A DNA stretch of 64,000 bases from a bacterium (GTDB lineage Bacteria > Patescibacteriota > Minisyncoccia > UBA6257 > 02-FULL-45-10c): assembly GCA_030646915.1 (NCBI GenBank), contig JAUSKT010000012.1:4663-68662 (forward strand). The letters are read 5' to 3'. Below are positions 195-63,214 of the stretch, in pieces. Position 1 is the stretch's first letter; the number at the start of each line of letters is the position of its first letter. Made by a program: the position numbers and the translations under genes. The notes under the pieces were generated by a model. That model was not told where the DNA came from, ran no database searches, and saw nothing but the letters and a program-made list of their open reading frames with translations.

Positions 195-1946
195 TTATTT
201 CAAAAATTTCAACATTTTTTCTAACGGCCAAGCATTTATAATATCCTCTTTTTCCGCCCAGCCCCGCCTTGCTTGCGCAATGCCATATTCTAGCCATTCA
301 AAATGAGATGTGTGATGCGCATCAGAATCAATAGCCATTTTTACTCCAGCTTCCGCGCATTTCCGGATATATTCATCTTTAAGATCAGAACGGTCTGAAG
401 CGTTTATTTCTAAAATCGTATTAGTCTTTTTAGCATGTTTTATTAATTCTTCAACATCCACATCATAAGGTTCACGCTTATTAAGAATCCTCCCAGTTGG
501 GTGGAAAATAATATCCACATGCGGATTAGACATAGCGCGCTTAATTCTTTCTGTCTGATCTTTTCTGGATAAATTAAAAAGTGAATGCACTGAGGCGCCA
601 ACCACTTCGCATTTTGCCAAAATTTCACCCGGCAAATCCATAGAACCATCTTTTAAAATATCACACTCAGTACCCTTAAGAACTTTAAACTTTAAACCTT
701 TAACTTTTAACTTATGATTTACTTCATCAATCTCTTTCCACTGCTTCTGAATTCTTATTTCATCTAGGCCGTGAGTCATTGCTAATCGCTTGGTATGGTC
801 TGTAATAGCAATATATTCTAATCCCATTTTCATCGCTACTTCTGCCATTTCTTGTATAGAATTTGCGCCATCAGTCCAATTAGTCTGAATCTGCAAATCA
901 CCCCTTAAATCTCCGTAACCGATAAGTTTTGGAAGTTTATTTTTTTGAGCAGCTTCAATTTCGCCCCGCATTTCTCTTAATTCCGGCTCAATATAATCCA
1001 TTCCTAAAGCTTTATATAATTCTTCTTCTGTTCTGCCGGCAATCTGTCTCCCTACGGGAGATCTCCCGTAGGGAGACTTTTTCATATCAAATAAACCGTA
1101 TTCGCTGAGTTTATAGCCCTTATTAAGGGCGATCCGCCTAAGTTCAATATTATGGTCTTTAGAACCGGTAAAATAATTAAGCGCCGCGCCATAAGATTCT
1201 GCCGAAACCACTCTTAAATCCACATCCAATCCATTTTTTAATTTAATTGCAGATTTAGTTTCACCATGAGCAAAAACTTGGGCTACTTCCGGCATAGAAA
1301 TAAAATAATCCATTATAGATTTTGGCTTTTTTGAAATAACTAAAATATCCGCATCGCCAATCGTATCTTTTCTTCGGCGGATTGATCCGGCAACCGCCAC
1401 CCGCTCCACTTCTTTTAATTTTTCCAGTCGAGATTCAATTTCCCTGACCTGCGGAATTGCTAATCCCAAAACAAACCGGCCGCCGATTTTTTTTAAAAAC
1501 TCTAAACCTTTTAAAATATTTTCTTCGCTCTTTATTCCAAATCCCTTCAAATTTCTTATTCTTCCACTTGCAAGTGCTTTTTCTAAATCTCTAAGGCCGA
1601 TAATTCCTAGTTCTTCATATAATTTTTTTAAAGTTTTAGACCCCAGCCCATTAATGCCTTCAAAATCTTTTAACCTAATGGGAATTTTCTTTTTAAAATC
1701 TTCATAATATTTTAAATGTCCAGTTTTAATCAGCTCCTCAATTTTTTCCGCAATAGAAATTCCAACTCCCGAAATCGCCCCTAAAGCTTTTAATCCGCCC
1801 TTTTTATAAATTTCTGAAGTTTTTTCTTCTAAATTTTCCAAAGCTTCCGCCACTTTTTCATAAGCCCGAGCTTTAAAAAACTCATTATCCATTTCAAGAT
1901 AAATCCCAATTTCTTTTAAAATTTTAACGATTTCCTGATTGTCCAT
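195..1946 (-). CDS. polX: Family X DNA polymerase with C-terminal PHP domain (PolX)
   Basis: 583-aa ORF with HhH motifs, a pol-beta-type nucleotidyltransferase core (GSIRRRKDTIGDADILV) and a C-terminal PHP domain (ITDHT..., DSDAHH). Contains a 32-nt palindrome at 1046-1077 and heptad repeats at 681-715. Confidence 0.9.
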   Translation of the reverse strand: MDNQEIVKILKEIGIYLEMDNEFFKARAYEKVAEALENLEEKTSEIYKKGGLKALGAISGVGISIAEKIEELIKTGHLKYYEDFKKKIPIRLKDFEGINGLGSKTLKKLYEELGIIGLRDLEKALASGRIRNLKGFGIKSEENILKGLEFLKKIGGRFVLGLAIPQVREIESRLEKLKEVERVAVAGSIRRRKDTIGDADILVISKKPKSIMDYFISMPEVAQVFAHGETKSAIKLKNGLDVDLRVVSAESYGAALNYFTGSKDHNIELRRIALNKGYKLSEYGLFDMKKSPYGRSPVGRQIAGRTEEELYKALGMDYIEPELREMRGEIEAAQKNKLPKLIGYGDLRGDLQIQTNWTDGANSIQEMAEVAMKMGLEYIAITDHTKRLAMTHGLDEIRIQKQWKEIDEVNHKLKVKGLKFKVLKGTECDILKDGSMDLPGEILAKCEVVGASVHSLFNLSRKDQTERIKRAMSNPHVDIIFHPTGRILNKREPYDVDVEELIKHAKKTNTILEINASDRSDLKDEYIRKCAEAGVKMAIDSDAHHTSHFEWLEYGIAQARRGWAEKEDIINAWPLEKMLKFLK

Positions 1947-2051
1947 CCCGTTTAGAAAATTAAAGCTAGCGTCTTTCGACTATAAAACTTCCGATAATAC
2001 TTGGGAGAATTTTTTCTATTAGTAAACATATTGGTTAATTTTCTAACGGGA
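1946..2051 (-). mobile_element. TIR element, long subfamily A (106 nt), on the polX start codon
   Basis: Ends are TCCCGTTAGA and TCTAACGGGA. A 4-bp direct repeat TGGA (gene sense) sits at 1942-1945 and 2052-2055. An internal 34-codon frame runs from ATG 2054-2056 to the TAA at 1952-1954. Confidence 0.85.
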
Positions 2052-14749: not shown

Positions 14750-15289
14750 TTAAGCGGCGAGGGTTGCTTCGGGCTGGCTCACGGGCGCCGGCTCCTTCAC
14801 TGGCAATGCTTTGCCAGCGAGCTCCATCACTTCTTTGATGCGCGGAGCCCGGCCTTCTACGGCATCGATTTCGAGCTCGCTGAGCGCTGAGGTTCCCCGG
14901 CAACCCATCTTGTCGAGAACCTCTGCCATCTGCTTGCCGCGCCTGTAAGGAAGTTTGGGGTCTTTATGGGAGGAATATCCTTCCAGATATTTATCCATAA
15001 GGTCAGCCAAATATTCCTTAGAATTCTCGCTTCTGGCCTTATCCAGAAACGGCGCGACCCACCCTTCGCCCATCAAGGCAAAAAGGGTTTCAGTTCCCTC
15101 CTTGCCGTCATCATCCATGACGAGCGCCAAGCGGGCAGCTTCCAAAAAACCCTGATTCCGGATCGACTGAGTCAGAATATGCGCCCCTGTCTTGGTTATG
15201 GACTGGTGATCCTTGTTGCCGATGCCCTTGGACTTTTCGTTGCCCTTCTTTTTTTCCTCGTCACCTTTCTTCTTCTTTTTTCTTCCCAT
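14750..15289 (-). CDS. Hypothetical protein with Lys-rich N-terminus, in a GC-rich cassette
   Basis: 179-aa ORF with TAGGAGG upstream of the ATG, its own TTGACA-17-TAAAAT promoter and a terminator. It is visibly GC-richer than its surroundings. Confidence 0.65.
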   Translation of the reverse strand: MGRKKKKKGDEEKKKGNEKSKGIGNKDHQSITKTGAHILTQSIRNQGFLEAARLALVMDDDGKEGTETLFALMGEGWVAPFLDKARSENSKEYLADLMDKYLEGYSSHKDPKLPYRRGKQMAEVLDKMGCRGTSALSELEIDAVEGRAPRIKEVMELAGKALPVKEPAPVSQPEATLAA

Positions 15290-15368: not shown

Positions 15369-15418
15369 TCCCGTTAGAGGCAGAGGCGCGCTGCGTGTCC
15401 TCGTGGCCTCTAACGGGA
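15369..15418. mobile_element. TIR element, short GC-rich form (50 nt), intergenic between divergent promoters
   Basis: tcccgttagaggcagaggcgcgctgcgtgtcctcgtggcctctaacggga, flanked by TTG on both sides. The right-hand TTG is part of the rpsT -35 hexamer. Confidence 0.8.
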
Positions 15419-17343: not shown

Positions 17344-18327
17344 TTATAGCTTCTGGCACTTTGGGCAAAAATGCGCAGAACGCCCACCCAACTTTACCCG
17401 AACGATAGCCGTTTTGCATCTTCGGCAAGGCTCATCCTCGCGCTGATAAACTAGACGATAATCCGCATATCCCCCCTCTTTTCCCGAAGTATCCCGATAA
17501 TCGCTATAAGAAGTGCCGCGCAATTTCAAGGCCTTTTCCAAAACTTTTCGTATTGCCTTATACAAACTTCCTAATTCCTGATTCCCCAACTTATTCGCCG
17601 GCTTGAATGGATGGATTTTCGCAGCCCATAAAATATCGTCAGAATAAATATTTCCGATTCCCGCAATAACTTCCGGATCCATTAAAACTTGCTTGATTTT
17701 GCGACGCTCGGACTTTATTAATTTTACAAACTCCGCGAATTTGAAACTTGGGTCTAATGGTTCCGGCCCCAAATTTTTTATCTCCGGCAAATTTTCAATC
17801 TGTTCTTTGGTGCCTAAAAGGGCTTTGGCAAATTTACGAAGATCAGAAAGCGCCAACATTGCACCATCATCCACCCCGTTAGAAGCCGCCCTCGCTTTTA
17901 GCGAGTGGCTACGGCCACCTTGGGGCGACCTGCTTCTAACGGGGTCAAGATAAAAAATTAAATGAATATATTGATTATAAGGATCCTCAACTACTTCTTT
18001 CGGCTCAAGCGGAATAGTTTTTTTGCCCACGACTTTCCACTTGCCAATTAGCAGATGCCCGGTCATTTTCAAATGAATCAGCAATAAAAAATCACCGCTT
18101 AAATAAATTAAAATATTTTTTGCCCGGCGGACTACTTTTAAAATTTTCTTTCCTTTAATTACTTTTTCAAAAATCGCCACGTGCTTATGGGCTATTTTAT
18201 TTTTCTGCTGGTCAAGCGGGTCTTTGAGCATTTTCGGCCAATCAAACCAAACGCCGACTATTCGTCGGCCAACTACTTTCTTATTCAGATCATTAACTAT
18301 GGTTTGTACTTCTGGAAGCTCTGGCAT
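17344..18327 (-). CDS. mutM: Formamidopyrimidine-DNA glycosylase (Fpg/MutM) with an in-frame repeat insertion
   Basis: N-terminal MPELPEVQT, H2TH region and C-terminal Zn finger CRRCKTAI...CPKCQ. A 23-codon GC-rich insert lies at 17875-17943. Confidence 0.9.
   Translation of the reverse strand: MPELPEVQTIVNDLNKKVVGRRIVGVWFDWPKMLKDPLDQQKNKIAHKHVAIFEKVIKGKKILKVVRRAKNILIYLSGDFLLLIHLKMTGHLLIGKWKVVGKKTIPLEPKEVVEDPYNQYIHLIFYLDPVRSRSPQGGRSHSLKARAASNGVDDGAMLALSDLRKFAKALLGTKEQIENLPEIKNLGPEPLDPSFKFAEFVKLIKSERRKIKQVLMDPEVIAGIGNIYSDDILWAAKIHPFKPANKLGNQELGSLYKAIRKVLEKALKLRGTSYSDYRDTSGKEGGYADYRLVYQREDEPCRRCKTAIVRVKLGGRSAHFCPKCQKL
17874..17944 (-). mobile_element. TIR element, short GC-rich form (71 nt), in frame inside mutM
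   Basis: ccccgttagaagc...gcttctaacgggg, translated as PVRSRSPQGGRSHSLKARAASNG. Flanks are TTGA/TGGA (gene sense). Confidence 0.75.
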
Positions 18328-21047: not shown

Positions 21048-21938
21048 TTACAATCTTTCAACTAATGATTTAAAACCCAATTCTTCAAAATATTTTTTAA
21101 GTCCATCTTTGTCTGGCGTCTCTTGTTTTAAATCGGCCAAAGTTAATTCTAATGGCACGTCCCGTTTTATCATTGCCAGTTTTTTTGATAAAAAAGCGCT
21201 TTCGCGGTTTTTTTCCAGTTTTTCTTGCAAAACTTTTTTTGGAATCAGACCGACTTCTTCATAAATTTTTTCCACTGATCCGTATTCCTTGATTAAATCT
21301 GTCGCGCCTTTCGGGCCAATGCCATTAACGCCAGGAATATTATCCGATACATCGCCGACTAAAGCTTTATAATCCACTAATTGTTCCGGTGAAAATCCGT
21401 ATTCCTGCAAAAATAAAACTTTATCATAAGAAATGGTCTTACTGACGCCGGTTCTTAAAAGCTCGACAATAACTTTATTATCATCAACCAATTGCAAATT
21501 ATCTTTGTCGCCAGAGAAAATGATAACTTTGAGTTCAAAGTTATCACCCTGAGCCCGCCGAAGGGTTCCCGAATCTTTAAACATTTCGGCTAAAGTTCCT
21601 ACAATATCATCTGCTTCAAAACCGGCTTTTTCCACCACTTTAATTCCAAATTTCTCAAAAGTATTGTGCGCTTCATGAAGCTGAGAAATCAATTCATTAG
21701 CAGTCGGCGGACGATGGGCTTTATATTCTTTATACATTTCCTTGCGAAAAGTCGGTTCTGGCCGGTCAAAGGCAGCGGCCGTATAATCCGGCTGATGTTC
21801 GCGCAAAATCTTTAAAAGAATGCTGGAAAGCCCATAAACTGCATTAATCGGTTCGCCCCTGGGAGTCGTCAGCGGCGGAAGCGCATGAAAAGAGCGGTGA
21901 ATCAAGGAGTTTGCGTCAATTAAAAGAAGTTTTTTCAT
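21048..21938 (-). CDS. 5'-3' exonuclease (FEN-like N-terminal domain of Pol I) as a separate ORF
   Basis: 296 aa with LLLIDANSLIHRSFHA, GFEADDIVGT and GDKDNLQL motifs plus an HhH region. Confidence 0.9.
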   Translation of the reverse strand: MKKLLLIDANSLIHRSFHALPPLTTPRGEPINAVYGLSSILLKILREHQPDYTAAAFDRPEPTFRKEMYKEYKAHRPPTANELISQLHEAHNTFEKFGIKVVEKAGFEADDIVGTLAEMFKDSGTLRRAQGDNFELKVIIFSGDKDNLQLVDDNKVIVELLRTGVSKTISYDKVLFLQEYGFSPEQLVDYKALVGDVSDNIPGVNGIGPKGATDLIKEYGSVEKIYEEVGLIPKKVLQEKLEKNRESAFLSKKLAMIKRDVPLELTLADLKQETPDKDGLKKYFEELGFKSLVERL

Positions 21939-22043
21939 CCCGTTTAGAAAATTAAAATAAGTGTCTTGCCGACTAAATACTTCCGATAGTGCTCTATAAA
22001 ATTTTTATTGCGATTAAACATGGTTATTAATTTTCTAACGGGA
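21938..22043 (-). mobile_element. TIR element, long subfamily A (106 nt), on the 5'-3' exonuclease start codon
   Basis: TIRs are intact and the TGAA duplication is at 21934-21937 and 22044-22047 (gene sense). A 34-codon internal frame starts at ATG 22046-22048, which overlaps the tsaE stop TGA. Confidence 0.85.
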
Positions 22044-22047
22044 TTCA

Positions 22048-22512
22048 TCACATTTCTATTATACGCTCTTTTTCGTTTTTGCCGTGCTTAAAATTAAGCA
22101 AAATCATATTTTTAGGCAAAATCTTTTTTGCTCTTTCCGGCCATTCAATTAAAACTATTACGCGCGGATCTTTAAGTATTTTTTTAAATCCTAAATCTAA
22201 AAGCTCTTTGGGCTTATTTATTCTGTATAAATCCAGATGATAAACATTAAAGAACATTTGACTTTTGACTTTTGACTTTTGACTTTTTAATTTATATTTC
22301 CTGCATATCACGAAGGTTGGGCTGGTAATCCGATTTTTCACGCCAAGCGCTTTCATAAAACCCTGCACGAAAGTAGTTTTCCCAGCGCCAAGTTCTCCGC
22401 GAAGAGCGACAATAGTAGCACCTCGTACTTGTTGTAAATGGCGAGCTTTTAATATTTTATTTACTAAGCCAACCGCTAACTTTTGAGTTTGGGTTTTGGA
22501 TTTACTTATCAT
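22048..22512 (-). CDS. tsaE: tRNA t6A biosynthesis ATPase TsaE (YjeE)
   Basis: 154 aa with the P-loop GELGAGKTTF and SPTF...YHLDLYRI. Contains a heptanucleotide tandem repeat at 22254-22288. Confidence 0.85.
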   Translation of the reverse strand: MISKSKTQTQKLAVGLVNKILKARHLQQVRGATIVALRGELGAGKTTFVQGFMKALGVKNRITSPTFVICRKYKLKSQKSKVKSQMFFNVYHLDLYRINKPKELLDLGFKKILKDPRVIVLIEWPERAKKILPKNMILLNFKHGKNEKERIIEM

Positions 22513-23173: not shown

Positions 23174-24189
23174 AAAAGTCCGCCTTCATCTTTTTGTTTA
23201 ATTCCCAGGTGCTTATAAGCCGCTGGCGTAACCAAGCGCCCGGCCGGCGTACGGTTTAAAAGACCGATACTCATTAAATACGGCTCATAGACATCCTCAA
23301 TAATTCCCCGGTCATCATTAAGTGCTGCGGCTAAAGTCTGGATGCCCACTGGTCCGCCGCGGAATTTTTCAATAATAATAGTCAAAAGCTGTCGGTCGGT
23401 CGGCTCCAAGCCAAGATGATCAATTTCAAGCATTGCCATAGTTTCTTGGGCGGCTTCTTCAGTAACCTCTTTTAAATTATTAACCTCTGCATAATCCCGA
23501 ACCCGGCGCAAAATGCGATTGGCAACTCTCGGAGTAAATCGGGAGGCTTTGGCAATTATATTAACAGCCGAATCTGCAACTTTCATTCCTAAAAGCCTGG
23601 CTGATCGCCGGACAATTGCTTCAATATCAGCTACTTCGTAATAATCTAGCTTAAAAGAGGCGCCAAAACGGGAACGAAGCGGGCCGGAAAGTAAATTCGC
23701 GCGGGTCGTAGCGGCAATTAAAGTAAATGGTGGGAGGTCTAAGGATAGAGTTCGCGCGCCCGGACCCTTGCCAACTATCAAATGCAACTTTCTCGATTCC
23801 AGCGCTGGATATAAAACTTCTTCAATTTGGCGATTCAACCGATGCGCCTCGTCAATAAATAAAATCTCTCCTTTGTCTAAATTGCTTAAAATAGCGGCGA
23901 GATCTCCCATCTTTTCCATTGTCGGTCCGGAAGTAATTTTAAAGCTTGCGCCCATTTCTTTTGCCACTAAATGCGCCAATGTAGTTTTTCCTAAGCCCGC
24001 CTGGCCATAAAATAAAAGATGATCGGCTGGCTCGCTCCGTTTTTTGGCAGCATCCAAAATTACACGCAAGTTTTTCTTTACTTTTTCCTGTCCGACGTAA
24101 TCACCCCACTGGGTCGGTCGAAGCGCCAAATCAATGTGCGTGTCGTCTTCAGTTTTATCAGTTTTAGCTGTAATTTTCTTTAATTCCAT
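23170..24189 (-). CDS. ruvB: Holliday junction helicase RuvB
   Basis: Walker A GQAGLGKTT, Walker B LFIDEAHRL and a winged-helix C-terminus. The start is set at MELKKITAK (24189). The track start at 24246 lies inside the repeat element. Confidence 0.93.
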   Translation of the reverse strand: MELKKITAKTDKTEDDTHIDLALRPTQWGDYVGQEKVKKNLRVILDAAKKRSEPADHLLFYGQAGLGKTTLAHLVAKEMGASFKITSGPTMEKMGDLAAILSNLDKGEILFIDEAHRLNRQIEEVLYPALESRKLHLIVGKGPGARTLSLDLPPFTLIAATTRANLLSGPLRSRFGASFKLDYYEVADIEAIVRRSARLLGMKVADSAVNIIAKASRFTPRVANRILRRVRDYAEVNNLKEVTEEAAQETMAMLEIDHLGLEPTDRQLLTIIIEKFRGGPVGIQTLAAALNDDRGIIEDVYEPYLMSIGLLNRTPAGRLVTPAAYKHLGIKQKDEGGLL

Positions 24190-24297
24190 CCCGTTTAGAA
24201 AAATAAATAATAATATCTTGTAACTAAAAAGCTTCCTATAATGCAATTATAATATTTTGACTTATTTATTGATACGGCTGTTATTTTTCTAACGGGA
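24189..24297 (-). mobile_element. TIR element, long subfamily B (109 nt), on the ruvB start codon
   Basis: Ends tcccgttagaaaaataa...ttatttttctaaacggga, with the TGGA duplication at 24185-24188 and 24298-24301 (gene sense). A 35-codon internal frame ends at a TAA 5 nt before the ruvB ATG. Confidence 0.85.
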
Positions 24298-26332: not shown

Positions 26333-26833
26333 ATGAAAAGAATGGTGCTGATGATCGGAATAGTGGCAGTGCTTGGAAGCGGCTGTGCCACGCTTCCGCA
26401 AGGAAGCCTGGTAACAGTCCGGACCACGGGATTCACGTTCTTCCAGTCAAAGATAACCGCCTACAACAACGCAGGCCAAAACGTGACAATCCAACCGTTC
26501 TCAAGCGAAAAAGGATTCGTGGCCGAATACCAACTTGGAAAACGGGACTGGGCGTGCCTGTGGCTCTGCCGTAAGAAGATTCCGACGAAGGTGTTCGTAC
26601 TCAGACACGGCGACCACCTCCGGATTCCGATGCAAATGAACATGACCGGCCAATATCGCCAGGAAAGCATCGGGCTCCTGATAAAAGAACGTGGGCGAAT
26701 AATTGGAGCATACAGCTACTGCGTATACGTTCCGTATGACCGCGCCATCACAGAAGACATCGTCTTCGGCCCGCAAGAGCTTGCGGAGCTGAAACAAGGA
26801 AACAGTGGACGGCCATGCCGAAGCGGATGGTAA
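26333..26833 (+). CDS. Hypothetical lipoprotein, in a GC-rich cassette
   Basis: 166 aa with lipobox LGSGCA and AAGGAGG upstream of the ATG. The GC-rich body gives long antisense ORFs. Confidence 0.7.
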   Translation: MKRMVLMIGIVAVLGSGCATLPQGSLVTVRTTGFTFFQSKITAYNNAGQNVTIQPFSSEKGFVAEYQLGKRDWACLWLCRKKIPTKVFVLRHGDHLRIPMQMNMTGQYRQESIGLLIKERGRIIGAYSYCVYVPYDRAITEDIVFGPQELAELKQGNSGRPCRSGW

Positions 26834-35709: not shown

Positions 35710-36777
35710 TTATTCTAAACTAAGGCTATAAAGCTTATTATCGTATCTGTTTTTAAAGAGCAGTTTTCCGCCAGCGAATTCTAGATGTTCAGCGTCAATT
35801 ATGATATCGGAATTTTCTAATAATAATTTTGAAGCCGCAGTGGCTAGGTTTATTTCATACAAATTATCGTCAAAATATACAGATTTTTTAAAATAATCAT
35901 CTGGTAAAAGCACCCCCTCTTTTATAAGTTTTGGAATGGCGCAATAAATTTTTTCCTTTTCCACCAAGCATTTGCTTGGAAGGGTAATAAAAGAAAGGTT
36001 GGTCAGATCATCCCCGGCTTTATTGATAATGCCAGTAACCGGAGAACGATTTTCATTGTGGTTTTTAATGCCGAATTCTCCATTTGGATACCACTTTATC
36101 CACAAACCGGATTGATTCTTTGTAACCGGAACCAGGCTTTTGGTAGACAGATTTAATGACCAGAGCGAAGAAGGTGTATCTGCGCTGGGGGTTTCATATA
36201 GAAGCAAGGTGTCGCCGGAAACCCAATTTAAAACCAAGTCTTTTTGGGTTAATTTTAAAACATCTCTGGTTTTTTGAGTGTCCGGATTAAAAATTTTTAA
36301 TCCCTTATCATCAAGATAAATTATTTCTTGGTTAGTCGGAGACCAATCCGCCGCTGAAATATTAGGCGGCAAAGCCTGCCAATTGTTAGTGGCGGTATTG
36401 AAAATACTGAAGCTGATTGCATCCGGATAATTTAATTTTACCAAAGCTAAAACCCCGCTATTGGAAGCTTTTAAATTATTAAATTTATTAATAGTTTGAG
36501 AATTTACCAATTCTTCTCCGCCAGAGCCAATCTTAATTACTTGCCCTAAGGGATTGAGGTAATAAATAAAATTATTTACCCGATTTACCCAATAATCAGA
36601 GATTTCATTATTAGATAAAAGTTTTAATTTTTGCGGAAGCTCGGTTGGCTGGGTATTTTCGGTATCTGGAGAAATCAGTTTTTTAAATAAATTTTGCCAA
36701 AGAAAATATCCTCCAACGAGTATTCCAAGCGTTATTAAAATTCCTAAACCAGTTTTTAAATATTTTTTCCAGTTCAT
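35710..36777 (-). CDS. Membrane-anchored beta-propeller-like protein (TolB/PD40-like), last gene of the T4SS-like cluster
   Basis: 355 aa with an N-terminal TM helix and a repetitive beta-strand-rich body. Confidence 0.45.
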   Translation of the reverse strand: MNWKKYLKTGLGILITLGILVGGYFLWQNLFKKLISPDTENTQPTELPQKLKLLSNNEISDYWVNRVNNFIYYLNPLGQVIKIGSGGEELVNSQTINKFNNLKASNSGVLALVKLNYPDAISFSIFNTATNNWQALPPNISAADWSPTNQEIIYLDDKGLKIFNPDTQKTRDVLKLTQKDLVLNWVSGDTLLLYETPSADTPSSLWSLNLSTKSLVPVTKNQSGLWIKWYPNGEFGIKNHNENRSPVTGIINKAGDDLTNLSFITLPSKCLVEKEKIYCAIPKLIKEGVLLPDDYFKKSVYFDDNLYEINLATAASKLLLENSDIIIDAEHLEFAGGKLLFKNRYDNKLYSLSLE

Positions 36778-36882
36778 CCCGTTTAGAAAATTAAAATAAA
36801 CGTCTTGTCGACTGAAGACTTCCGATACTGCTCTATAAAATTATTGCTATGTATAAACATATTTATTAATTTTCTAACGGGA
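36777..36882 (-). mobile_element. TIR element, long subfamily A (106 nt), on the start codon of 35710-36777
   Basis: TIRs are intact. Flanks are TGCA/TGAA (3 of 4 match). The internal frame encodes MHPVRKLINMFIHSNNFIEQYRKSSVDKTFILIF. Confidence 0.85.
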
Positions 36883-39148: not shown

Positions 39149-40864
39149 TTATCCCCTTTGTTCCAATATTTGTTCGGGCTTGGTGGTGACAATTTTATCT
39201 TCAAGATAAGAGGCTATAACTTGGATTGCCACATGATTTAATCCGGCAAAAAACAGCCCCTCCCCAATTTTTGCTTCCAAGAGAAGGCTTTTTTCTCCCT
39301 CGGTTAAATTAAAAGTTTTAGCAACCATATCAATCATTGCCGGGGCCTGTTTTAAAAGAAGCTGTAAAGATGAGTTGGTAATAATCGGCCGGCCATATGG
39401 AGATTTTAAGAAATCTTCCACATCTTGAGTAATAGTAGTTACGCCCATAAAATATTTCCGGCATCGTTTTACCAATCCAAATAAGAAAGTGGCGCCATCT
39501 TCATGTTTCATAATTACCCAAGCTTCATCAATAACCAGCACTCGTTTTTTAAGATTGGCGCGGATTAAGTTCCAGATGAAATTCAAAACAATATACATTG
39601 CAATCGGCCGGAGTTCGTCTTCCAGGTCTCGGATAGAAAAAACAATCAAACGATTTTTAATATCCACATTAGTCGGTTGATTGGTAAATCCTCCATAGCT
39701 GCCTTGGGTATATTTATATAATCTTTCCGCAAGTCCCCGCCCGCCCTCCATATTTTCCATAACTTTTTGGAGGTCTTCTAAAAGCGGAGGCGCGGCATTA
39801 GAAAAATCTTTTCCGGGAATAATATCGTGGGAAGCGTAAGTTTCTGAAAGCGCCCTGTCTAAAATCGCATCTTCTTCGGGAGTAATTTTTCCAAGCATTA
39901 TTTTTAAAAGTCCGGCTAAGTTTACGATATGGGAACGAAGAACATCACTAGGATCTTCGTCTGTAGGAATTATCGGAATATCAAAAGGATTGACGTGGTG
40001 ATCAGATGCTAAAGAAATTTTAAAATAGCTTCCGCCGACGGCGGCAGTAAGATTTTCATATTCATTTTCCGGATCAATAACAATGACATCTATTCCAAGC
40101 ATCAAAAGCCTTAAAATTTCCAGTTTAGTGGCATAAGATTTTCCACTTCCAGATTTGGCGAAAATCACCATATTGGCATTTTCTAAAGAAAATCGGTCGA
40201 AAATTACAAGCGTATTATTAAGCCGGTTAATGCCATACATAAGGCCGTCATTTGAAGTAAGTTCAGAGGAGGTAAAGGGAAAGACAGAAGAAAGCGGGCC
40301 GGAATTCAATGGTGAATGGATTAATAATTTATCTTGGCCGATAGGCAGAGTTGATCCAAAGCCTTCTAATTGTTGAAAAAGCGCCGGTTTGACATAGATC
40401 AGGCGGCTTTCGAGTAAAGAGGTTATTTTATTTTCTAATTTATGGAGAGCTTCTATAGTATCGGCATAAACAGTGATATAGACGCCGACATTAAATAAAT
40501 GTTCTCTTGATTGCTGTAAAGAATCCCGCAAAGATTCAATGTCTTGAAAGGCGGTTTCTAGCATAGGATCGCGCACCATTCCCTTCTCCTGCCTTTCAAT
40601 TACTTGAGATTCTACTTGAGCAGCCTTTTTACGGAGTCTTTTAAGGGCCATTGGCGTTTCTACTGGATGAATAAAGATGGAAATATCCAGAAGTTCCGGC
40701 ATATCAATAATTCCGGAAAACCAGCCAGTGGCCAAATATCTGGGATAAGTAAAAATGAAAATAGTTTTTACAAACTTATCTCCAAGTTTTAAATAATTGG
40801 AATTCACTTCCAGCGCCGGTGGCGCAATTGCATTGATTAAATTTTTATTTTGTTCTTCAGCCAT
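39149..40864 (-). CDS. virB4: VirB4/TrbE/PrgJ-type conjugation/T4SS ATPase
   Basis: 571 aa with Walker A AKSGSGKSY, Walker B VLVIDEAW and a C-terminal TTITQDVEDF region. Confidence 0.8.
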   Translation of the reverse strand: MAEEQNKNLINAIAPPALEVNSNYLKLGDKFVKTIFIFTYPRYLATGWFSGIIDMPELLDISIFIHPVETPMALKRLRKKAAQVESQVIERQEKGMVRDPMLETAFQDIESLRDSLQQSREHLFNVGVYITVYADTIEALHKLENKITSLLESRLIYVKPALFQQLEGFGSTLPIGQDKLLIHSPLNSGPLSSVFPFTSSELTSNDGLMYGINRLNNTLVIFDRFSLENANMVIFAKSGSGKSYATKLEILRLLMLGIDVIVIDPENEYENLTAAVGGSYFKISLASDHHVNPFDIPIIPTDEDPSDVLRSHIVNLAGLLKIMLGKITPEEDAILDRALSETYASHDIIPGKDFSNAAPPLLEDLQKVMENMEGGRGLAERLYKYTQGSYGGFTNQPTNVDIKNRLIVFSIRDLEDELRPIAMYIVLNFIWNLIRANLKKRVLVIDEAWVIMKHEDGATFLFGLVKRCRKYFMGVTTITQDVEDFLKSPYGRPIITNSSLQLLLKQAPAMIDMVAKTFNLTEGEKSLLLEAKIGEGLFFAGLNHVAIQVIASYLEDKIVTTKPEQILEQRG

Positions 40865-40968
40865 CCCGTTAGAAAATTAAATTAAACATCTTGCCGACTA
40901 AAGACTTCCGATATTGCTCTATAAAATTTTGGTTTAGTTTAAACATATTTATTAATTTTCTAACGGGA
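40864..40968 (-). mobile_element. TIR element, long subfamily A (105 nt), on the virB4 start codon; supplies the stop codon of the upstream gene
   Basis: TIRs are intact and no flanking duplication is seen. The TAG of ORF 40960-41631 (40960-40962) lies inside the element terminus cccgTTAGaaaa. Confidence 0.85.
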
Positions 40969-41645: not shown

Positions 41646-42161
41646 TTATCTATAGTCTACTCTTTTAGCTATTTCCCTTTCTCCGGTGATTTTCCGCATC
41701 ATTTCAAAGCGTTCCTTGCTGCTTTTTTCTCGGTCAGTGATTGCTGGGGCGAAAGCTTTTTCTCTTTTTGGAACCGGCTGTTTGCTGGTTTTTAATTGAT
41801 CCCAAAGATTATCAAGCAGCGATTTCGCCTGAGTTATTTTAAATCCGCCGGTTTTTAATTTCGGTTCAGCTATTTTGGGAGCAGCCTCCCTTCTCCAGAG
41901 ATAAAATCTTGGCTTCCAATAAAAATTAAAAGCCGCAAACACGATTATTGATAATGGCCGCCCATTTACTTTTATAAAGGCAAAAGATAAAGAAATAACA
42001 GCCAATACGAAAGTTATTAATATCCAAAGCCAGAGCTGTAAAAAGAAGAAAAGAAAAAAACTTATTCCGCCCGCAGTTGCAACGTATAAAAACTGCTTCA
42101 GGGTAAGCGGTCCAATAATCCTGTCTTCGGTTTCTATAAATTGCGGGACTTGAAAGTTCAT
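41646..42161 (-). CDS. PrgI/VirB3-like membrane protein
   Basis: 171 aa with an N-terminal VPQFIETEDRIIGPLTLKQF followed by two TM helices, the PrgI family pattern. Confidence 0.6.
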   Translation of the reverse strand: MNFQVPQFIETEDRIIGPLTLKQFLYVATAGGISFFLFFFLQLWLWILITFVLAVISLSFAFIKVNGRPLSIIVFAAFNFYWKPRFYLWRREAAPKIAEPKLKTGGFKITQAKSLLDNLWDQLKTSKQPVPKREKAFAPAITDREKSSKERFEMMRKITGEREIAKRVDYR

Positions 42162-42268
42162 CCCGTTAGAAAAATAAATTATAACGCCTTACGACTAACA
42201 GGTTTTCTATAATGCAATTATAAAATTTTGAATTATCTTTACACATGATTGTTATTTTTCTAACGGGA
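42161..42268 (-). mobile_element. TIR element, long subfamily B (108 nt), on the start codon of 41646-42161
   Basis: TGAA duplication on both sides. The internal frame encodes MNPVRKITIMCKDNSKFYNCIIENLLVVRRYNLFF and ends at a TAA 4 nt before the ATG. Confidence 0.85.
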
Positions 42269-42272
42269 TTCA

Positions 42273-42301
42273 TCCCTTCGTTAGTATTGTCTCTAACGGG
42301 A
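42273..42301 (-). mobile_element. 29-nt stub of a TIR element in tandem with the previous copy
   Basis: Gene sense reads tcccgttagagacaatactaacgaaggga between two further ATGAAT repeats. It is 9 codons long and in frame with the downstream element frame. Confidence 0.6.
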
Positions 42302-42305
42302 TTCA

Positions 42306-43220
42306 TTATTTATTTTTTAAATCAATAATGTTATCGCCTGATTTTTCGAATTTCCGCAAATCAATCCTGTTTTGATCCGCGGGATTTTTTGGCGTTCCAA
42401 TATTAGTAATTGGGGTTCTTGGGCCGCTGTAGTGAACTACTCTAGCAGCCGGATTATTTTCGGGTGTTTCCAGTCTTACTGATACTGCCTTAGAAGCAGA
42501 TTTTTTTTCTTCAGAAGCCGGCCGCGAATAGTTTTGAATTTTAATAGAAAGATCCGGCCTAGCATTAAAAGTTGGCTTAGGGGAAGAAACTTCTGTTTCT
42601 TGATGTAAGATAAATGGAGAAGATGGCGCTTCCAAAGATTGGAGATCAATTTTAGCTTCCTCTTTTTTAGGAGCAAGAGATGGCTCTAAAAAATCTTTAA
42701 ATGATTTTTGTACGCTAGCTTGTCCTAGTGATGAGGCTGGTCCCGTTAGAGACTCCGCCCGCGCTTGCGCGCCCGAAGGGCCTATGGGGCGGGCTGTCTC
42801 TAACGGGATGGCTGCTGATTGTGTCGCTGGTTCAGTTGCAGGTTTTTGCGCGGCAGAAGCTGATCCTGGCTTGCCAAAATAAATTAATTTTACATCCACG
42901 CCAACATCCCGCCTTAATTCATTTTCAATTGGTTTTAAAATTTTATTTTCAATATCTTCGGCGATGGATTTTGCGGTTGTAAAACTAACCATAAGTTCGT
43001 GACTTAGGGCATTTATAAACTCCGTAGGTTCAATATCTTGGGTTACAAGCCTAAATATTAGCTTCGGTATAATTATTCCCCGTTCATTCTTTATTCCCAG
43101 TCTTTGGTTTATTTCAGTAACTAGATAAGTAGTTTGTAGGGAAGAAAGCCGCTCTTTAACGTTTGGGGGCAATGACTCAAATGCAGCCCCCAAATTTTTA
43201 AATTCTTTAGTGTCGTCCAT
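42306..43220 (-). CDS. Hypothetical protein with Ala/Ser/Pro-rich linker (T4SS-like cluster), carrying an in-frame repeat insertion
   Basis: 304-aa ORF. A 22-codon GC-rich insert lies at 42742-42807. Confidence 0.5.
   Translation of the reverse strand: MDDTKEFKNLGAAFESLPPNVKERLSSLQTTYLVTEINQRLGIKNERGIIIPKLIFRLVTQDIEPTEFINALSHELMVSFTTAKSIAEDIENKILKPIENELRRDVGVDVKLIYFGKPGSASAAQKPATEPATQSAAIPLETARPIGPSGAQARAESLTGPASSLGQASVQKSFKDFLEPSLAPKKEEAKIDLQSLEAPSSPFILHQETEVSSPKPTFNARPDLSIKIQNYSRPASEEKKSASKAVSVRLETPENNPAARVVHYSGPRTPITNIGTPKNPADQNRIDLRKFEKSGDNIIDLKNK
42741..42808 (-). mobile_element. TIR element, short GC-rich form (68 nt), in frame inside 42306-43220
   Basis: tcccgttagagac...gtctctaacggga with a TGG duplication. 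It is read in a different frame from the other intragenic copies (IPLETARPIGPSGAQARAESLTG). Confidence 0.75.
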
Positions 43221-47700: not shown

Positions 47701-48543
47701 TTATCGGAAAATATTAGCCAGAGACTTTATTTGTTCCAGTGATAAATTTTGCGGACGATCTAGGGGGTTGATATTCAGAAATTGCAGGCTTTTTTTAATA
47801 TCTTCTTCTTTGGTTTTAAGACCAGTCCTAAGGTTATTAAAGATTGTTTTTCTCGGTTGTTTAAAAAGAATGTGGATTAATTTGTAGTAATTTTGCTGTA
47901 GTTGTCTGTGGTTATTTGTAGTTGTTTGTGGTTTTGTCGTTAGTTTAATTACTGCAGAATCTACTTCCGGCGGCGGATTAAAATCCGCCGGTTTTAAGCT
48001 AAAAAGTATTTTAGGTTCTGCCCAGAATTGGACAGCAGCTGCCAGCAGATTCATCCCGTTAGAGGCAGAGGCGCGCTGCGGGCCCTCGCGGCCTCTAACG
48101 GGATTCATTCTCCGGGGTTGGGAAACAATTCTTTCCGCAACTTCTTTTTGAATCATTAAAACAGAAATATTAGGCTTATTATTTAATTCACTTAAAACCC
48201 TTAGCAGTTTACCGGTAATATAGTAGGGAATGTTTCCTACAAGTTTAAAACTTGAAGAATCAAGTTTAAAGCAAATTTTTGACAATTCTTTTAGGGCATC
48301 TCCGTGGATAACTTCTATTTTTTCTTCATGTTTAATAAGTTTTACCGCAAGATCTCGGTCTTTTTCAATTGCAATTAATTTGCAGCCAACCTTTTTACAT
48401 TCTTCTAAAAGCGGAAAAGTCAGCGCTCCATCGCCTGGACCAATTTCAATAATTGTTTCTCCGGATTTTAAATCTAAATCAGCAATTATTTTTTTAATTG
48501 CAGATTTATTTGTAAGAAAATGCTGGCCTAATTGTTTATTCAT
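47701..48543 (-). CDS. rsmA: 16S rRNA (adenine1518/1519-N6)-dimethyltransferase RsmA/KsgA with an in-frame repeat insertion
   Basis: 280 aa with LGQHFL, the SAM motif EIGPGDGALT and NIPYYIT. An 18-codon insertion lies at 48049-48102. Confidence 0.9.
   Translation of the reverse strand: MNKQLGQHFLTNKSAIKKIIADLDLKSGETIIEIGPGDGALTFPLLEECKKVGCKLIAIEKDRDLAVKLIKHEEKIEVIHGDALKELSKICFKLDSSSFKLVGNIPYYITGKLLRVLSELNNKPNISVLMIQKEVAERIVSQPRRMNPVRGREGPQRASASNGMNLLAAAVQFWAEPKILFSLKPADFNPPPEVDSAVIKLTTKPQTTTNNHRQLQQNYYKLIHILFKQPRKTIFNNLRTGLKTKEEDIKKSLQFLNINPLDRPQNLSLEQIKSLANIFR
48054..48103 (-). mobile_element. TIR element, short GC-rich form (50 nt), in frame inside rsmA
   Basis: Flanked by the direct repeat ATGAAT (gene sense; 48049-48054 and 48103-48108). 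Translated as PVRGREGPQRASASNG. Confidence 0.85.
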
Positions 48544-48665
48544 CCCGTTAGAGACAGGTCATCTTTAGATGACCGTAACTCGGCCGCCTAAACGACTCCT
48601 GACGATTAATTATTGATTCTGATTTTATATATATATTAAACATAGTTTAGTTGTCTCTAACGGGA
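48543..48665 (-). mobile_element. TIR element, long subfamily C (123 nt), on the rsmA start codon
   Basis: Ends tcccgttagagac...gtctctaacggga with TGAA duplications. The internal frame has an early TAA at codon 8, then an in-frame ATG leading to the terminal TAA. Confidence 0.85.
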
Positions 48666-53550: not shown

Positions 53551-53660
53551 CTTTACTACCTCCTTTTTTTTGCAAACAAAATTTTGCGGGTTGTCTTTCT
53601 CGTGTTGAATTTGCAAAGAACTTATCTGAAAAAACTTTTAATTTTCTCGGATAAATTCTC

Positions 53661-55403: not shown

Positions 55404-55754
55404 TTGAGCATGCCTAATTTAAATGAAAAACAATTACAGGAATTAAAAGAACAATTAGAAAAAGAAGCTGGAGAGCTTGAGGCCCAGATGGGTTCAGTTA
55501 AAAAAACTCCAGAATTCGGCAGCGATGTTGAGAGCGATCTTTCAGAAGAGGCGGATGAGGCGGAAGAATTTTCCAATAATTTAGGAACAAAAGACGTTCT
55601 TAAAGAAAGGCTTCGTGATATTGAAGCTGCTTTGGATAAAATAATTAAAGGAGGATATGGAAAATGTGAAAAGTGCGGAATGGATATAGAATCAGAAATT
55701 TTGAAAGTAAATCCGGAATCCAGGCTTTGTAAAATGTGTAAGGCGGGAAAATAA
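55404..55754 (+). CDS. DksA/TraR-family C4 zinc-finger protein
   Basis: 116 aa with a coiled-coil N-terminus and C-terminal CEKCGMDI...CKMCK. Confidence 0.8.
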   Translation: MSMPNLNEKQLQELKEQLEKEAGELEAQMGSVKKTPEFGSDVESDLSEEADEAEEFSNNLGTKDVLKERLRDIEAALDKIIKGGYGKCEKCGMDIESEILKVNPESRLCKMCKAGK

Positions 55755-55758
55755 TGAA

Positions 55759-55881
55759 TCCCGTTAGAGACAACCAAACTATGTTTTATATATATCCAAA
55801 ATTTGAATCAATAATTAATAATCAGAAGTCAGTTAGGTGGCCGAGTTACGGTCATCTAAAGATGACCTGTCTCTAACGGGA
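55759..55881 (+). mobile_element. TIR element, long subfamily C (123 nt), on the comM start codon
   Basis: TGAA duplications at 55755-55758 and 55882-55885. The upstream ATG (55754-55756) overlaps the dksA-like stop TAA. The internal frame is 40 codons (MNPVRDNQTMFYIYPKFESIINNQKSVRWPSYGHLKMTCL). Confidence 0.88.
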
Positions 55882-57467: not shown

Positions 57468-58544
57468 TTATGGGACGAGGCTGCTGAGAACTTTTTTAAG
57501 TCCGTTATAGGAAGTGCTTAGTACTAATTTGTCTCCAGACCAAACTATATTGAGTCCGGCGCCTTTTTTGGAATAGGTTAAATAACGAGTTGAAAGCCCG
57601 TTTAATTGTCCAGTTTTAAATCCGCTTGCACTTGGCGTTCCGGGAGAAGTTAGAAAAAGATTCTGGAGATTTGTAGAGGTTTCTAAAATAGTTGAGAAAG
57701 TCTGGCCGTCTGCAAGATTTGCATTAGGAGCAAGTTTTAAAATATAGGCCGGCCAAACACCATCTTGGTCGTAAAAAAGTCCAGTAGTAAAGTCTTCGCC
57801 AAAAAGGCTTTTTATATTATCCATGGATAATTCTGGAAAAACAGCCGATAAAAATTTGGAAGCATCTAGCGGGCCGTTGGCATCGCTTAAAGAAACCTCT
57901 ATCAAATTTCCAGAAGGATTGGATTTTTGGGCTTCTTGATTTAAAGCGTTAGTTAAAGATGTTAAGTCGGAACTCGCTAAATTTACTTCAACTGCGCTAT
58001 CTGAAGATTGCAAAAGAGATTGGTGAATGCGCCCCTCATTTTCCGTTGTTGCGACTGGAACCTCTGGGGTTTCTGTAGTTGTTGGCGGAGTTACGGCTGG
58101 GGGTGGGGGCGGAGTTTGTGTTGGAAAAAGCATTGGAAAGAGTACAAAGTAGCTTAGCAGTCCAACTCCAACCGCAACAACAACTACCCCTCCCCAAAGT
58201 AAAAGCTTTTTTCCTCTTCCACTGGCAGCCGGCTCTTCTTCAATAACTGGCGCCATTTCTTTTTCCATTTCTGCCTTTAGATTTTCTCTTGGAGAGCCAA
58301 AATCAGCAGGAGTAATTTTAGGCGGCGGCGGAGGCGGGGTTGTTGGCGCGGACCATTCTTTTTTTAGTTCCGGAGGAGTAAATGGTTTTGGCGCCGGGCC
58401 AGATCCGCCGGTTTCTTTTAGGGATTCCAAATCAGACTTCATAGTTCGAAGCGTAATTTCTGGAGGAGGTGGAGGCAGAGGCATAGTCGGCCGTCCGCCA
58501 GGTGGCGGAGGAAAACTAGATGGCTGCGGATTTAAATCATCCAT
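57468..58544 (-). CDS. Hypothetical proline-rich single-pass membrane protein
   Basis: 358 aa with PPPPP tracts, one TM helix and an extracytoplasmic C-terminal domain. Confidence 0.55.
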   Translation of the reverse strand: MDDLNPQPSSFPPPPGGRPTMPLPPPPPEITLRTMKSDLESLKETGGSGPAPKPFTPPELKKEWSAPTTPPPPPPKITPADFGSPRENLKAEMEKEMAPVIEEEPAASGRGKKLLLWGGVVVVAVGVGLLSYFVLFPMLFPTQTPPPPPAVTPPTTTETPEVPVATTENEGRIHQSLLQSSDSAVEVNLASSDLTSLTNALNQEAQKSNPSGNLIEVSLSDANGPLDASKFLSAVFPELSMDNIKSLFGEDFTTGLFYDQDGVWPAYILKLAPNANLADGQTFSTILETSTNLQNLFLTSPGTPSASGFKTGQLNGLSTRYLTYSKKGAGLNIVWSGDKLVLSTSYNGLKKVLSSLVP

Positions 58545-58649
58545 CCCGTTTAGAAAATTAAATTAAACGTCTTGCCGACTGAAGACTTCCGATAATGCTC
58601 TTTAAGACAATTTAGTACTATAATCATATTTGTTAATTTTCTAACGGGA
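58544..58649 (-). mobile_element. TIR element, long subfamily A (106 nt), on the start codon of 57468-58544
   Basis: TGGA duplications on both sides (ATGGAT/ATGGAT). The internal frame encodes MDPVRKLTNMIIVLNCLKEHYRKSSVGKTFNLIF. Confidence 0.88.
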
Positions 58650-62263: not shown

Positions 62264-63214
62264 ATGGCAGCCATTGAAAAATCCTTAAAAGACTACTTAG
62301 ATTATCTGGAAATTGAAAAAAACCGTTCGCCGAAGACGCGAGAAAATTATGAACGATATTTAAAAGCCTTTATTGATTTTTCTAGAATTAAAAAACCGGA
62401 AGATATTACAATGGAGACGGTGAAAGAATTCCGGATATGGTTAGCGCGCAGTCCCGTTAGAGGCCGCGAGGGCTCGAAGCGCGCCTCTGCCTCTAACGGG
62501 ATAAAAAAAGTTACCCAGACTTATTACGCCATTGCCATCCGGAATTTTTTAAAATACTTGATTAAAAACGATTTTGAAGTTTTGTCTCCGGATAAAATTG
62601 AATTGCCGAAAATTCCCCGCCGGCAGATAGATATTATTGAATACGCGGATTTGGAAAGGTTTTTAAGCGCGCCGGCGCAAAATACTTTGCGCGGACTTAG
62701 AGACAGAGCTATCCTGGAAATGTTTTTTTCCACCGGACTCCGGATTTCCGAACTTTGCAATTTAGATAGGTATATTAATTTGGATAGAGGAGAAATCACG
62801 GTAAGAGGCAAGGGCGAAAAATTGCGGGTGGTTTTTCTTTCAGATCGGGCAAGAGCGGCTATAAAAAATTATCTGGATAAAAGAAGTGATACCACAGAAC
62901 ATTTATTTATCAGCCTTTCCAAGCAAACTTCTCCATTGAAAGAGCCGAAAGTTATTGGAAAAATCACTTCGCGAGCAGTCCAGCGGTTGGTAGAATTTTA
63001 CCGGCGGAAAGCTGGCATCGCCAAAAAAATAACTCCGCATCAGATCCGCCATCAGTTCGCGACTGATTTATTAATAAATGGCGCAGACCTCCGCTCGGTG
63101 CAGGAGCTTCTTGGCCATAGCAATATTTCCACCACTCAAATTTATACCCACATTACTAATAAAGAACTTCGGGAAATTCATAAATCTTTCCACGCAGCCA
63201 GGCGGAGAAAATAA
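62264..63214 (+). CDS. XerC/XerD-type tyrosine recombinase with an in-frame repeat insertion
   Basis: 316 aa with an N-terminal SAM-like domain (LEIEKNRSPKTRENYERYL) and catalytic R...HQIRH...LLGH...Y residues. A 16-codon insert lies at 62453-62500. Confidence 0.88.
   Translation: MAAIEKSLKDYLDYLEIEKNRSPKTRENYERYLKAFIDFSRIKKPEDITMETVKEFRIWLARSPVRGREGSKRASASNGIKKVTQTYYAIAIRNFLKYLIKNDFEVLSPDKIELPKIPRRQIDIIEYADLERFLSAPAQNTLRGLRDRAILEMFFSTGLRISELCNLDRYINLDRGEITVRGKGEKLRVVFLSDRARAAIKNYLDKRSDTTEHLFISLSKQTSPLKEPKVIGKITSRAVQRLVEFYRRKAGIAKKITPHQIRHQFATDLLINGADLRSVQELLGHSNISTTQIYTHITNKELREIHKSFHAARRRK
62452..62501 (+). mobile_element. TIR element, short GC-rich form (50 nt), in frame inside the Xer recombinase gene
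   Basis: 46 of 48 core positions are identical to the rsmA copy, in the same orientation and frame (PVRGREGSKRASASNG). No flanking duplication is recognisable. Confidence 0.8.

Follow-up and report, generated by a model that had tools for sequence, protein, structure and literature searches.

We examined a 64,000-nucleotide (nt) stretch of bacterial DNA (assembly GCA_030646915.1, contig JAUSKT010000012.1, positions 4,663 to 68,662 of the forward strand; hereafter, the window) in which short repeated elements lie at the junctions between genes. The flanking proteins place the genome in the Patescibacteria (the candidate phyla radiation, CPR), near Candidatus Harrisonbacteria. An earlier note on this DNA had singled out three junctions, tsaE/5'-3' exonuclease, dksA-like/comM, and open reading frame (ORF) 42306-43220/prgI-like, and had proposed that elements were inserted there into formerly overlapping stop and start codons, preserving the geometry of translational coupling. 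Our analysis consisted of sequence comparison and predicted folds. In what follows, labels L001 to L130 denote fetched contigs or loci.

At the first junction, on the reverse strand, the tsaE ORF (22048-22512, with a Pfam TsaE match) ends in a TGA at 22050-22048 that overlaps an ATG at 22048-22046 (TGATGAAT). The element that follows (21938..22043) has a core running from CCCG to CGGG at 21939-22042, an outer base pair T..A, and the repeat TGAA on both sides (22044-22047 and 21934-21937); beyond it, the 5'-3' exonuclease gene (21048-21938) begins ATGAAAAAA. At the second junction, on the forward strand, the stop codon TAA (55752-55754) of an ORF for a DksA/TraR-type zinc-finger protein overlaps an ATG at 55754-55756 (TAATGAAT). 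A larger element with a 121-nt core (55759..55881), flanked by TGAA at 55755-55758 and 55882-55885, separates this ATG from comM/yifB, which begins ATGAAT at 55881. The third junction, again on the reverse strand, has a TAA at 42308-42306 overlapping an ATG at 42306-42304, followed by two copies in tandem: a mini copy with a 27-nt core (42273..42301), which lies in the upstream TGAA repeat of the next element and contributes 11 in-frame codons, and a 106-nt copy with TGAA repeats (42161..42268). The PrgI-family gene (41646-42161) then starts with ATGAAC.

In each case, a short ORF that starts at the overlapped ATG bridges the element or elements: 34 codons at tsaE/exonuclease (22048..21944), 40 codons at dksA-like/comM (55754..55876), and 46 codons, spanning both copies, at the prgI-like junction (42306..42166). 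All three end in a TAA whose first base lies 7 to 8 nt before the ATG of the gene, leaving a spacer of 4 to 5 nt (ACGGG before the exonuclease ATG at 21938 and CGGG before the comM ATG). Thus, both the overlaps reported at 22043-22050, 55752-55759, and 42301-42308 and the short frame closing just before the downstream gene are present at all three sites as the earlier note had read them. What is duplicated, however, is the 4-bp TGAA and not the ATG; the A of the ATG on the gene side is the last base of the element. The octamer at these junctions does not stand out as a signal, since TRATGAAT was found 11 times versus 9.5 expected.

The three junctions belong to a larger family. The sequence CCCGTTAG occurs 26 times in the window against an expected 1.1, and there are 16 copies in it: eight AT-rich copies with cores of 103 to 107 nt (Fam1, to which the elements before the exonuclease and PrgI-family genes belong), two of 121 nt (Fam2, including that before comM), five GC-rich hairpins (48 to 69 nt), and the 27-nt mini copy. 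All 16 share the ends CCCGTTAGA...TCTAACGGG, and the terminal inverted repeats read (T/C)CCCGTTAGA...TCTAACGGG(A/G) or, in the shorter form, (T/C)CCCGTTAG...CTAACGGG(A/G). The family as a whole falls into three size classes, about 100 to 107 nt (AT-rich), 121 nt, and 45 to 72 nt (GC-rich hairpins). In an alignment of 49 long copies the terminal 10 to 20 bp were invariant.

The limits of the element were set with two collections, one gathered from species-representative genomes with an 18-nt end pattern (88 copies in this test) and one gathered from metagenomes with a two-ended pattern of the short class (121 copies). The bases immediately outside CCCG and CGGG are complementary in 87 of 88 genome copies (T..A in 82 and C..G in 5) and in 115 of 121 metagenome copies (C..G in 85 and T..A in 30), and they are therefore part of the element. 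Beyond this outer pair, an exact 4-bp direct repeat was present in 57/88 and 88/121 copies, respectively, whereas the next 4 nt outward gave no exact match. The repeats have the form TNNA, namely, TTTA/TAAA, TGAA/TTCA, and TCAA/TTGA, plus TGGA in the long class; within the window they are TGAA or TGGA and are perfect in 10 of the 16 copies. Two other models, a 5- to 6-bp repeat (ATGAA) and a 2-bp repeat (GA, with AT-extended ends), were replaced by the 4-bp model on the evidence of short copies at non-start sites. There is also a C..G subfamily, which rebuilds the start codon as GTG (L130 is an example).

That the copies are insertions follows from empty orthologous sites and from variation in presence and absence among relatives, as the earlier note had supposed. 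We compared syntenic contigs whose flanking proteins are 83 to 91% identical to those of the window, and at least nine orthologous sites were empty. Start-codon copies were missing at ruvB (L002, L003, and L005), tsaE/exonuclease (L003 and L004, in which the stop codon, 3 nt, and ATG follow one another, and L115), dksA/comM (L109, where ComM is 91% identical and the site reads GCGTAATATGAATGTT, L110, and L111), ORF304/prgI, virB4N/virB4C, yidC/jag, and ORF373/ORF355. The inserts inside fpg, ksgA, and the xerC/D-like gene are absent from all relatives examined; at the ksgA site, the in-frame Met-Asn (ATGAAT) is native and is also found in relatives. The insert in ORF 42306-43220 is absent from L112 but is shared with L113 and L114, where an 87-nt copy occupies the same site and frame and differs in length by 21 nt (7 codons).

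These empty sites also bear on the proposed ancestral overlap. When the element and one copy of the repeat are deleted in silico, the three junctions become TGATGAAAAAAC, TAATGAATCTT, and TAATGAACTTT, each a 1-nt stop/start overlap, as the earlier note had stated. The junctions of the relatives are compact (-4 to +11 nt), but none of them is -1: they stand at +3 and +2 nt for tsaE/exonuclease, +1 and +2 nt for dksA/comM, and -4 nt (an ATGA overlap in L112) with short gaps up to +11 nt (L113 and L114) for prgI. The restored overlap is therefore a reconstruction and not an observed ancestor, and it applies to these three copies and is not a general rule. The window has no element-free junction at -1. 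Relatives do have TAATG overlaps of native origin, one at uvrD/ksgA of L111 (TAATGAAT, with no element) and one at yidC/jag of L112, and the site corresponding to ORF 36889-38010/ORF 35710-36777 is an ATGA overlap in L112.

What the long copies have in common is the start codon. An ATG directly follows one end in 82 of 91 copies, and it opens an ORF of at least 60 codons in 77 of the 87 gene-adjacent copies. Ten copies in the window sit directly before a gene ATG, those of PolX, the exonuclease, RuvB, Jag/R3H, ORF355, the C-terminal half of VirB4, PrgI, KsgA, ComM, and ORF358. Among window genes that start with ATGRA, 9 of 26 carry a copy, versus 1 of the 35 other genes (Fisher P = 0.0013). 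The window has 325 ATGRA sites, and that just 26 of these are gene starts points to strong filtering after insertion. A census of the 87 gene-adjacent copies gave 4 on 1-nt overlaps (3 of them in the window), 8 on ATGA overlaps, 11 in which the upstream ORF ends at a TAG of the element end, 20 with a stop codon 1 to 7 nt upstream, and 44 with no upstream ORF on the same strand. Of the ten start-codon copies in the window, three are on overlaps and three or four follow promoter-like regions. Short copies, unlike the long class, sit at TNNA sites anywhere. The elements do lie in compact junctions, but the common factor is the start codon (A/TGRA) and not the stop/start overlap, which is where the insertion context claimed in the earlier note fails.

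The second line of evidence concerns the frame that bridges the element. Entry through the upstream ATG offers one open frame (ATG AAT CCC GTT AGA), the other two meeting TGA or TAG at once, and exit has three outcomes: a stop at the TAA 4 to 5 nt before the gene ATG, a stop at the TGA of ATGA, or in-frame read-through. In 66 copies used for the frame test, the interior was open in the bridging frame in 44, versus 4 and 8 in the other two frames and 30 of 198 on the reverse strand. Openness went with length. It was kept in 42 of 51 copies that, by their length, end at the built-in TAA or at the TGA of ATGA, versus 2 of 15 copies that, at their length, would extend the protein of the gene by a fusion of about 35 residues. 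The eight Fam1 copies of the window are 66 to 92% identical to one another, yet all keep a frame of 34 to 37 codons; indels within the short ORF add up to 3 nt, with the sole 1-nt indel falling after the TAA. Under random substitution at the observed divergence, the probability that all six 104-nt copies would be open is ∼0.02.

No conserved peptide accompanies the open frame, as can be seen from a GTCG motif near the gene-proximal end whose reading frame differs from copy to copy. The short class has its own form of the constraint: 87 of 124 lengths are divisible by three, as are 43 of 46 inside long ORFs, and the TAG frame is never used. Together, these frame and length constraints indicate that copies are translated and not removed from the RNA, and on these grounds we rejected intron-like excision at the RNA level.

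[quoted passage not shown] The parts of this conclusion differ in strength. We have little doubt about the mobile-element anatomy, given the inverted repeats, the small size (27 to 121 nt), the lack of a transposase, and the many copies (16 in 64 kb and more than 220 loci elsewhere). For the hand-over of ribosomes, which we read from the sequences, we lean slightly toward a functional relay.

The geometry follows from the sequence: insertion at A/TGAA yields A-TGAA-[T...A]-TGAA, so that the native ATG and its native upstream context remain on the far side of the element while the last base of the element, with the repeat, rebuilds ATGAA before the gene. The relay would then work as follows. 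Ribosomes would start or restart at the original ATG and translate the short ORF. In the predicted fold, the A and U of the gene AUG are paired, through a terminal stem of 15 to 20 bp, to codon 2 of the short ORF. Direct initiation at that AUG would face competition from this stem, which a ribosome translating the short ORF would be expected to melt. Terminating beside the gene AUG, that ribosome could then reinitiate, and the gene would stay expressed in a genome with few Shine-Dalgarno sites. Insertions elsewhere would be purged, except for short copies of length divisible by three, which could survive in frame inside genes. Regarding Shine-Dalgarno sites, the earlier note had said that the native genes have none. 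A core motif (GGAG, GAGG, or AGGA at -18 to -4) precedes 8 of 61 genes, which is the background level (8.7% at random ATGs), but in five of the eight genes the site is a strong AGGAGG, and the statement of the note is too strong. Many window genes have TATAAT 6 to 10 nt before the ATG. The five genes with AGGAGG lie within 52075-55296 (three consecutive genes, 52075-53550, 53742-54455, and 54601-55296), 14750-15289, and 26333-26833.

Several points weigh against this interpretation. Because the copies of a single genome have common ancestry, their counts are not wholly independent. A premature stop interrupts the bridging frame in 22 of the 66 copies, including the window copy at uvrD/ksgA, and an uninterrupted relay is thus not obligatory. 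The TAA close to the ATG belongs, as a fixed component, to the terminal inverted repeat, and its presence alone is no evidence of design; more generally, the TAA, TAG, and TGA codons at the ends follow unavoidably from the palindromic end and the TGAA repeat and need not be adaptations. The long perfect stem could instead serve as a site for RNase III or block translation. In five copies, which lie between divergent genes, there is an ATG on both outward strands (TTCAT/.../ATGAA, as at L017 1598-1703, L052 5810-5914, L102 1860-1961, and L094 1205-1304), an inverted rather than a direct flank that needs two events; they could have arisen by two insertions followed by deletion between inverted repeats. 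Finally, neither Pfam scans of the window nor the ∼230 fetched loci yielded a transposase or an autonomous copy, in a search that was not exhaustive. The fetched loci held no distant pair of ends enclosing a transposase-like ORF, and the unpaired ends in them proved to be degenerate copies or host genes (such as those for glycosyltransferases and DnaA). Mobility therefore rests on the repeats, the ends, and the empty sites.

The elements might instead be ordinary selfish MITEs, simply tolerated immediately outside coding sequence, with a functionless frame and with downstream genes expressed independently from the rebuilt ATG or from an internal promoter. We consider this unlikely, although the broken frames, the end stops dictated by the palindrome, and a genome that initiates without Shine-Dalgarno sites anyway would all suit it. 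So would the AT-rich interior, with its TATA-like strings, and a weak sense-strand promoter-like match inside the copy at 36778-36881. Yet this was the only sense match in the four long copies that the scan covered, promoter-like matches were not enriched (35 versus 28.8 ± 5.9 expected), no site was consistent inside the elements, and no promoter motif was conserved across copies. Selfish insertion also leaves unexplained why the bridging frame is open 5 to 10 times more often than the others, why openness is tied to a length that reaches a built-in stop, why indels preserve the frame, and why the GTCG motif is oriented 30:0 with respect to the gene, always on the gene-proximal side and the sense strand. 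Nor does independent initiation sit well with a gene AUG partly buried in a stem of 15 to 20 bp.

Alternatively, the host might have recruited a beneficial cis-regulatory RNA module, such as a structured switch, a site of RNase III processing, or an element conferring stability, before many genes. The fixed orientation is in keeping with this, as are ends extremely conserved over deep lineages and strong predicted structure (-29 to -55 kcal/mol, with z-scores of -3.5 to -7.4 versus shuffled controls). In addition, 30 of the 49 long copies have a subterminal hairpin whose loop is GTCG and whose stems covary (at 21944-21990 in the window, and in L011, L031, L034, L037, L054, L088, L098, and others). 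Its stems are 5 to 8 bp and end ∼22 to 24 nt from the gene-proximal end; in a motif-anchored test, stems of at least 5 bp were found in 20 of the 30, versus 21% of shuffled sequences. The hairpin could be a transposase-binding site or an RNA element. But the free energy of the 46-nt subterminal region that holds it was not below that of shuffled controls (mean z, ∼0), and the consensus fold recovered the terminal stem alone, the hairpin emerging solely in the motif-anchored test. Moreover, the flanking genes are unrelated in function (PolX, RuvB, exonuclease, Jag, parts of a type IV secretion system, KsgA, and ComM), close relatives do without the element at these positions, conservation of the interior is poor, copies also lie inside coding sequence, and Rfam 15 gave no match to the element at the gathering score, the only matches in the window being two tRNAs. 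A regulatory RNA module is accordingly quite improbable in our estimation.

Specific targeting of overlapping stop and start codons (TGATG or TAATG) to keep the coupling geometry, the proposal of the earlier note, has in its favor the three window copies that reconstruct to 1-nt overlaps and the native TAATG overlaps of relatives. It is nevertheless very improbable: 4 of 87 gene-adjacent copies are on such overlaps while 44 have no upstream ORF on their strand, the octamer is not enriched, the empty counterparts of the three junctions are never at -1, and short copies insert at TNNA sites anywhere. That the short ORF encodes a functional small protein (MNPVRKL...LIF), making the repeat a small gene family, is scarcely credible, for although MNPVRK at the N terminus and LIF at the C terminus are conserved in the window copies, it is the inverted repeats that encode these residues, the interiors of different genomes are unrelated, 14 copies terminate in another frame, at the TGA of ATGA, and the GTCG motif is not read in one constant frame.

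The transposon family, for which we prefer the hand-over reading to these alternatives, extends well beyond the window. The 18-nt end pattern matched more than 100 loci in species-representative genomes, most of them Patescibacteria of many lineages, including Saccharibacteria, Paceibacterota, Liptonbacteria, Sungiibacteriota, Harrisonbacteria, Brennerbacteria, Giovannonibacteria, and Vogelbacteria; a minority of single-end matches in unrelated taxa is taken to be chance. The two-ended short-class pattern matched at least 120 metagenome loci, spread over many groundwater and sediment metagenomes. In three viral contigs (L116 10058-10075, L117 3905-3922, and L118 6232-6249), one shared phage gene that starts MAYDPVRKLNT matches the element end over 18 nt with no second end nearby; these matches are probably chance, and their number is near our own estimate of what chance would give.

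We advance more tentatively, as possible but somewhat doubtful, a broader reading: that this is a transposon family adapted to start codons. Such a family would rebuild the ATG (or GTG, in the C..G subfamily), carry ends that stop and restart translation in three frames, keep one frame open, and thereby make its insertion nearly silent for translation in packed, Shine-Dalgarno-poor CPR genomes, while copies of length divisible by three would add peptide segments to conserved proteins throughout the radiation. CPR genomes are small, ∼90% coding, and thought to be poor in mobile DNA, and here the family reaches about one copy per 4 kb and recurs in many lineages. If the broader reading is true, it would represent a manner, not described so far, in which mobile DNA can coexist with an extremely streamlined genome; in the literature searched, whose coverage was incomplete, we found no description of this family in CPR or of a MITE that rebuilds start codons. 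If the hand-over is true, the transposon would colonize the one noncoding position that every gene has, its start, without silencing the gene, and would offer a natural system in which to study reinitiation and initiation without Shine-Dalgarno sites in CPR. There would also be a systematic cause of miscalled gene starts in CPR annotations. Gene callers shift or extend starts through the elements, as in the window, where ORF calls ran into the ruvB copy, the copy at the upstream half of virB4, and the in-frame ksgA copy; conserved proteins gain inserts of 14 to 25 residues.

The remaining Fam1 copies of the window are as follows. The copy before PolX (1946..2051, reverse strand) has TGGA repeats and a 34-codon ORF, with a TAAAAT promoter-like box but no same-strand gene upstream. 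That before ruvB (24189..24297, reverse) has TGGA repeats and a 35-codon ORF. At yidC/jag-R3H (35025..35130, forward; TGGA repeats), the yidC stop is separated by 1 nt from the ATG; this copy lies within a dnaN-dnaA/rnpA-yidC-jag cluster (30806-35555) that is probably the replication origin region. The copy between ORF 36889-38010 and ORF 35710-36777 (36777..36882, reverse) has repeats TGCA/TGAA with one mismatch, and that before ORF 57468-58544 (58544..58649, reverse) has TGGA repeats and a TACAAT box 8 nt 5' of the upstream ATG.

The eighth Fam1 copy (40864..40968, reverse) lies between the two halves of a VirB4/TraC-like ATPase; its repeats are decayed, and the upstream ORF ends at the TAG in CCCGTTAG. 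We rejected the idea that this copy (40865-40967) split the gene, because most relatives have the same two ORFs with no element, with an 8-nt overlap in L112, and the split is ancestral. In the clade the ATPase consists of ORFs of ∼220 and 571 amino acids (39149-41631; L112 5346-7716; L113 5312-7716), while other relatives have a single protein of ∼780 to 790 amino acids; the split is older than the element. The second Fam2 copy, at uvrD/ksgA (48543..48665, reverse; TGAA repeats), is the one whose short ORF is broken, at codon 8, with an in-frame ATG two codons on.

Four of the five hairpin copies are in frame inside genes. In ksgA, a 48-nt core (48054..48103, reverse) sits at the native Met-Asn and adds 18 residues, PVRGREGPQRASASNG being a predicted peptide of KsgA; in fpg, a 69-nt core with the pair C..G (17874..17944, reverse) adds 25 residues; in the XerC/D-like recombinase gene, a 48-nt core (62452..62501, forward) adds 14 amino acids; and ORF 42306-43220 has a 66-nt core (42741..42808, reverse). 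The fifth hairpin (15369..15418, forward) is intergenic and abuts a TTGACA box upstream of rpsT.

Some further observations concern the tsaE/exonuclease region. DNA polymerase I is split (19569-21938) between the 5'-3' exonuclease gene and a separate gene for the polymerase domain, the gap between them being 0 nt; the split is also found in relatives, sometimes with other genes between the two. The tsaE coding sequence has a perfect 7-nt tandem repeat (TTTGACT × 4.4, 22257-22287), and its TsaE Pfam match is ∼20 residues longer than the profile. In L002 (9597-10000) and L005 (9584-10000), extra small genes, one of them UPF0150/HicB-like, lie between tsaE and the exonuclease gene, which has a TAAAAT box 3 to 8 nt before its ATG and looks leaderless. 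An independent assembly of the same genome (Logan SRR13727527; L001 1-102) starts inside the tsaE/exonuclease element, suggesting that such repeats break short-read assemblies.

Compared with known systems, the anatomy fits the definition of prokaryotic MITEs (nonautonomous DDE-type elements), which likewise are short, lack a transposase, have inverted ends and duplications of fixed length, and occur in many copies that vary in presence and absence, except that no parent element, that is, no cognate insertion sequence with the same ends, was found here. A further difference is that nearly all long copies lie exactly on start codons, with the ATG rebuilt from the last base and the repeat. We know of no family that matches the 4-bp TNNA repeat with CCCG ends. 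IS200/IS605-derived PATEs and REP/RAYT sequences have no inverted ends and no duplication and insert beside a fixed tetra- or pentanucleotide; they are ruled out by the clear inverted ends and 4-bp duplications. The attC sites of integrons form cassette arrays beside an integrase and have the core GTTRRRY. These are also ruled out, as the copies lie at housekeeping genes syntenic with those of relatives and GTTAGAA/GTTAGAG do not fit that core.

Correia elements (CREE/NEMIS) of Neisseria are closer, being abundant MITEs beside genes, cotranscribed with them, with long terminal stems. Those stems serve as substrates of RNase III, and expression can be influenced by the ends. Correia elements duplicate TA, however, and act via promoters and processing, and to our knowledge neither a rebuilt start codon nor a bridging frame has been described in their case. 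The 4-bp TNNA repeat excludes Correia elements, just as it excludes IS200/IS605-derived repeats and REPs.

Termination-reinitiation coupling at ATGA or TAATG shares with these junctions a stop codon within a few nucleotides of the next AUG and the lack of a Shine-Dalgarno site; as we read the sequences, the difference is that the geometry here would be supplied by a mobile element, together with an extra ORF of 34 to 46 codons. Palindromic repeats of the ERIC/IRU and BOX/RUP kinds are transcribed, may contain small ORFs, and occasionally lie within genes (PMC10969869). The start-codon specificity and frame-dependent architecture seen here have not been reported for them. Rickettsia palindromic elements are palindromic repeats that lie in frame in unrelated housekeeping genes and add a peptide to the product (Ogata et al. 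2000, as summarized in PMC10969869). By analogy, the short copies behave like these elements, being in frame in fpg, ksgA, the xerC/D-like gene, and many metagenomic ORFs. The host phylum here, however, is the Patescibacteria, and the copies are 45 to 72 nt versus ∼150 bp in Rickettsia; the present family differs as well in its clear ends, its 4-bp repeats, and its additional long class specialized for start codons.

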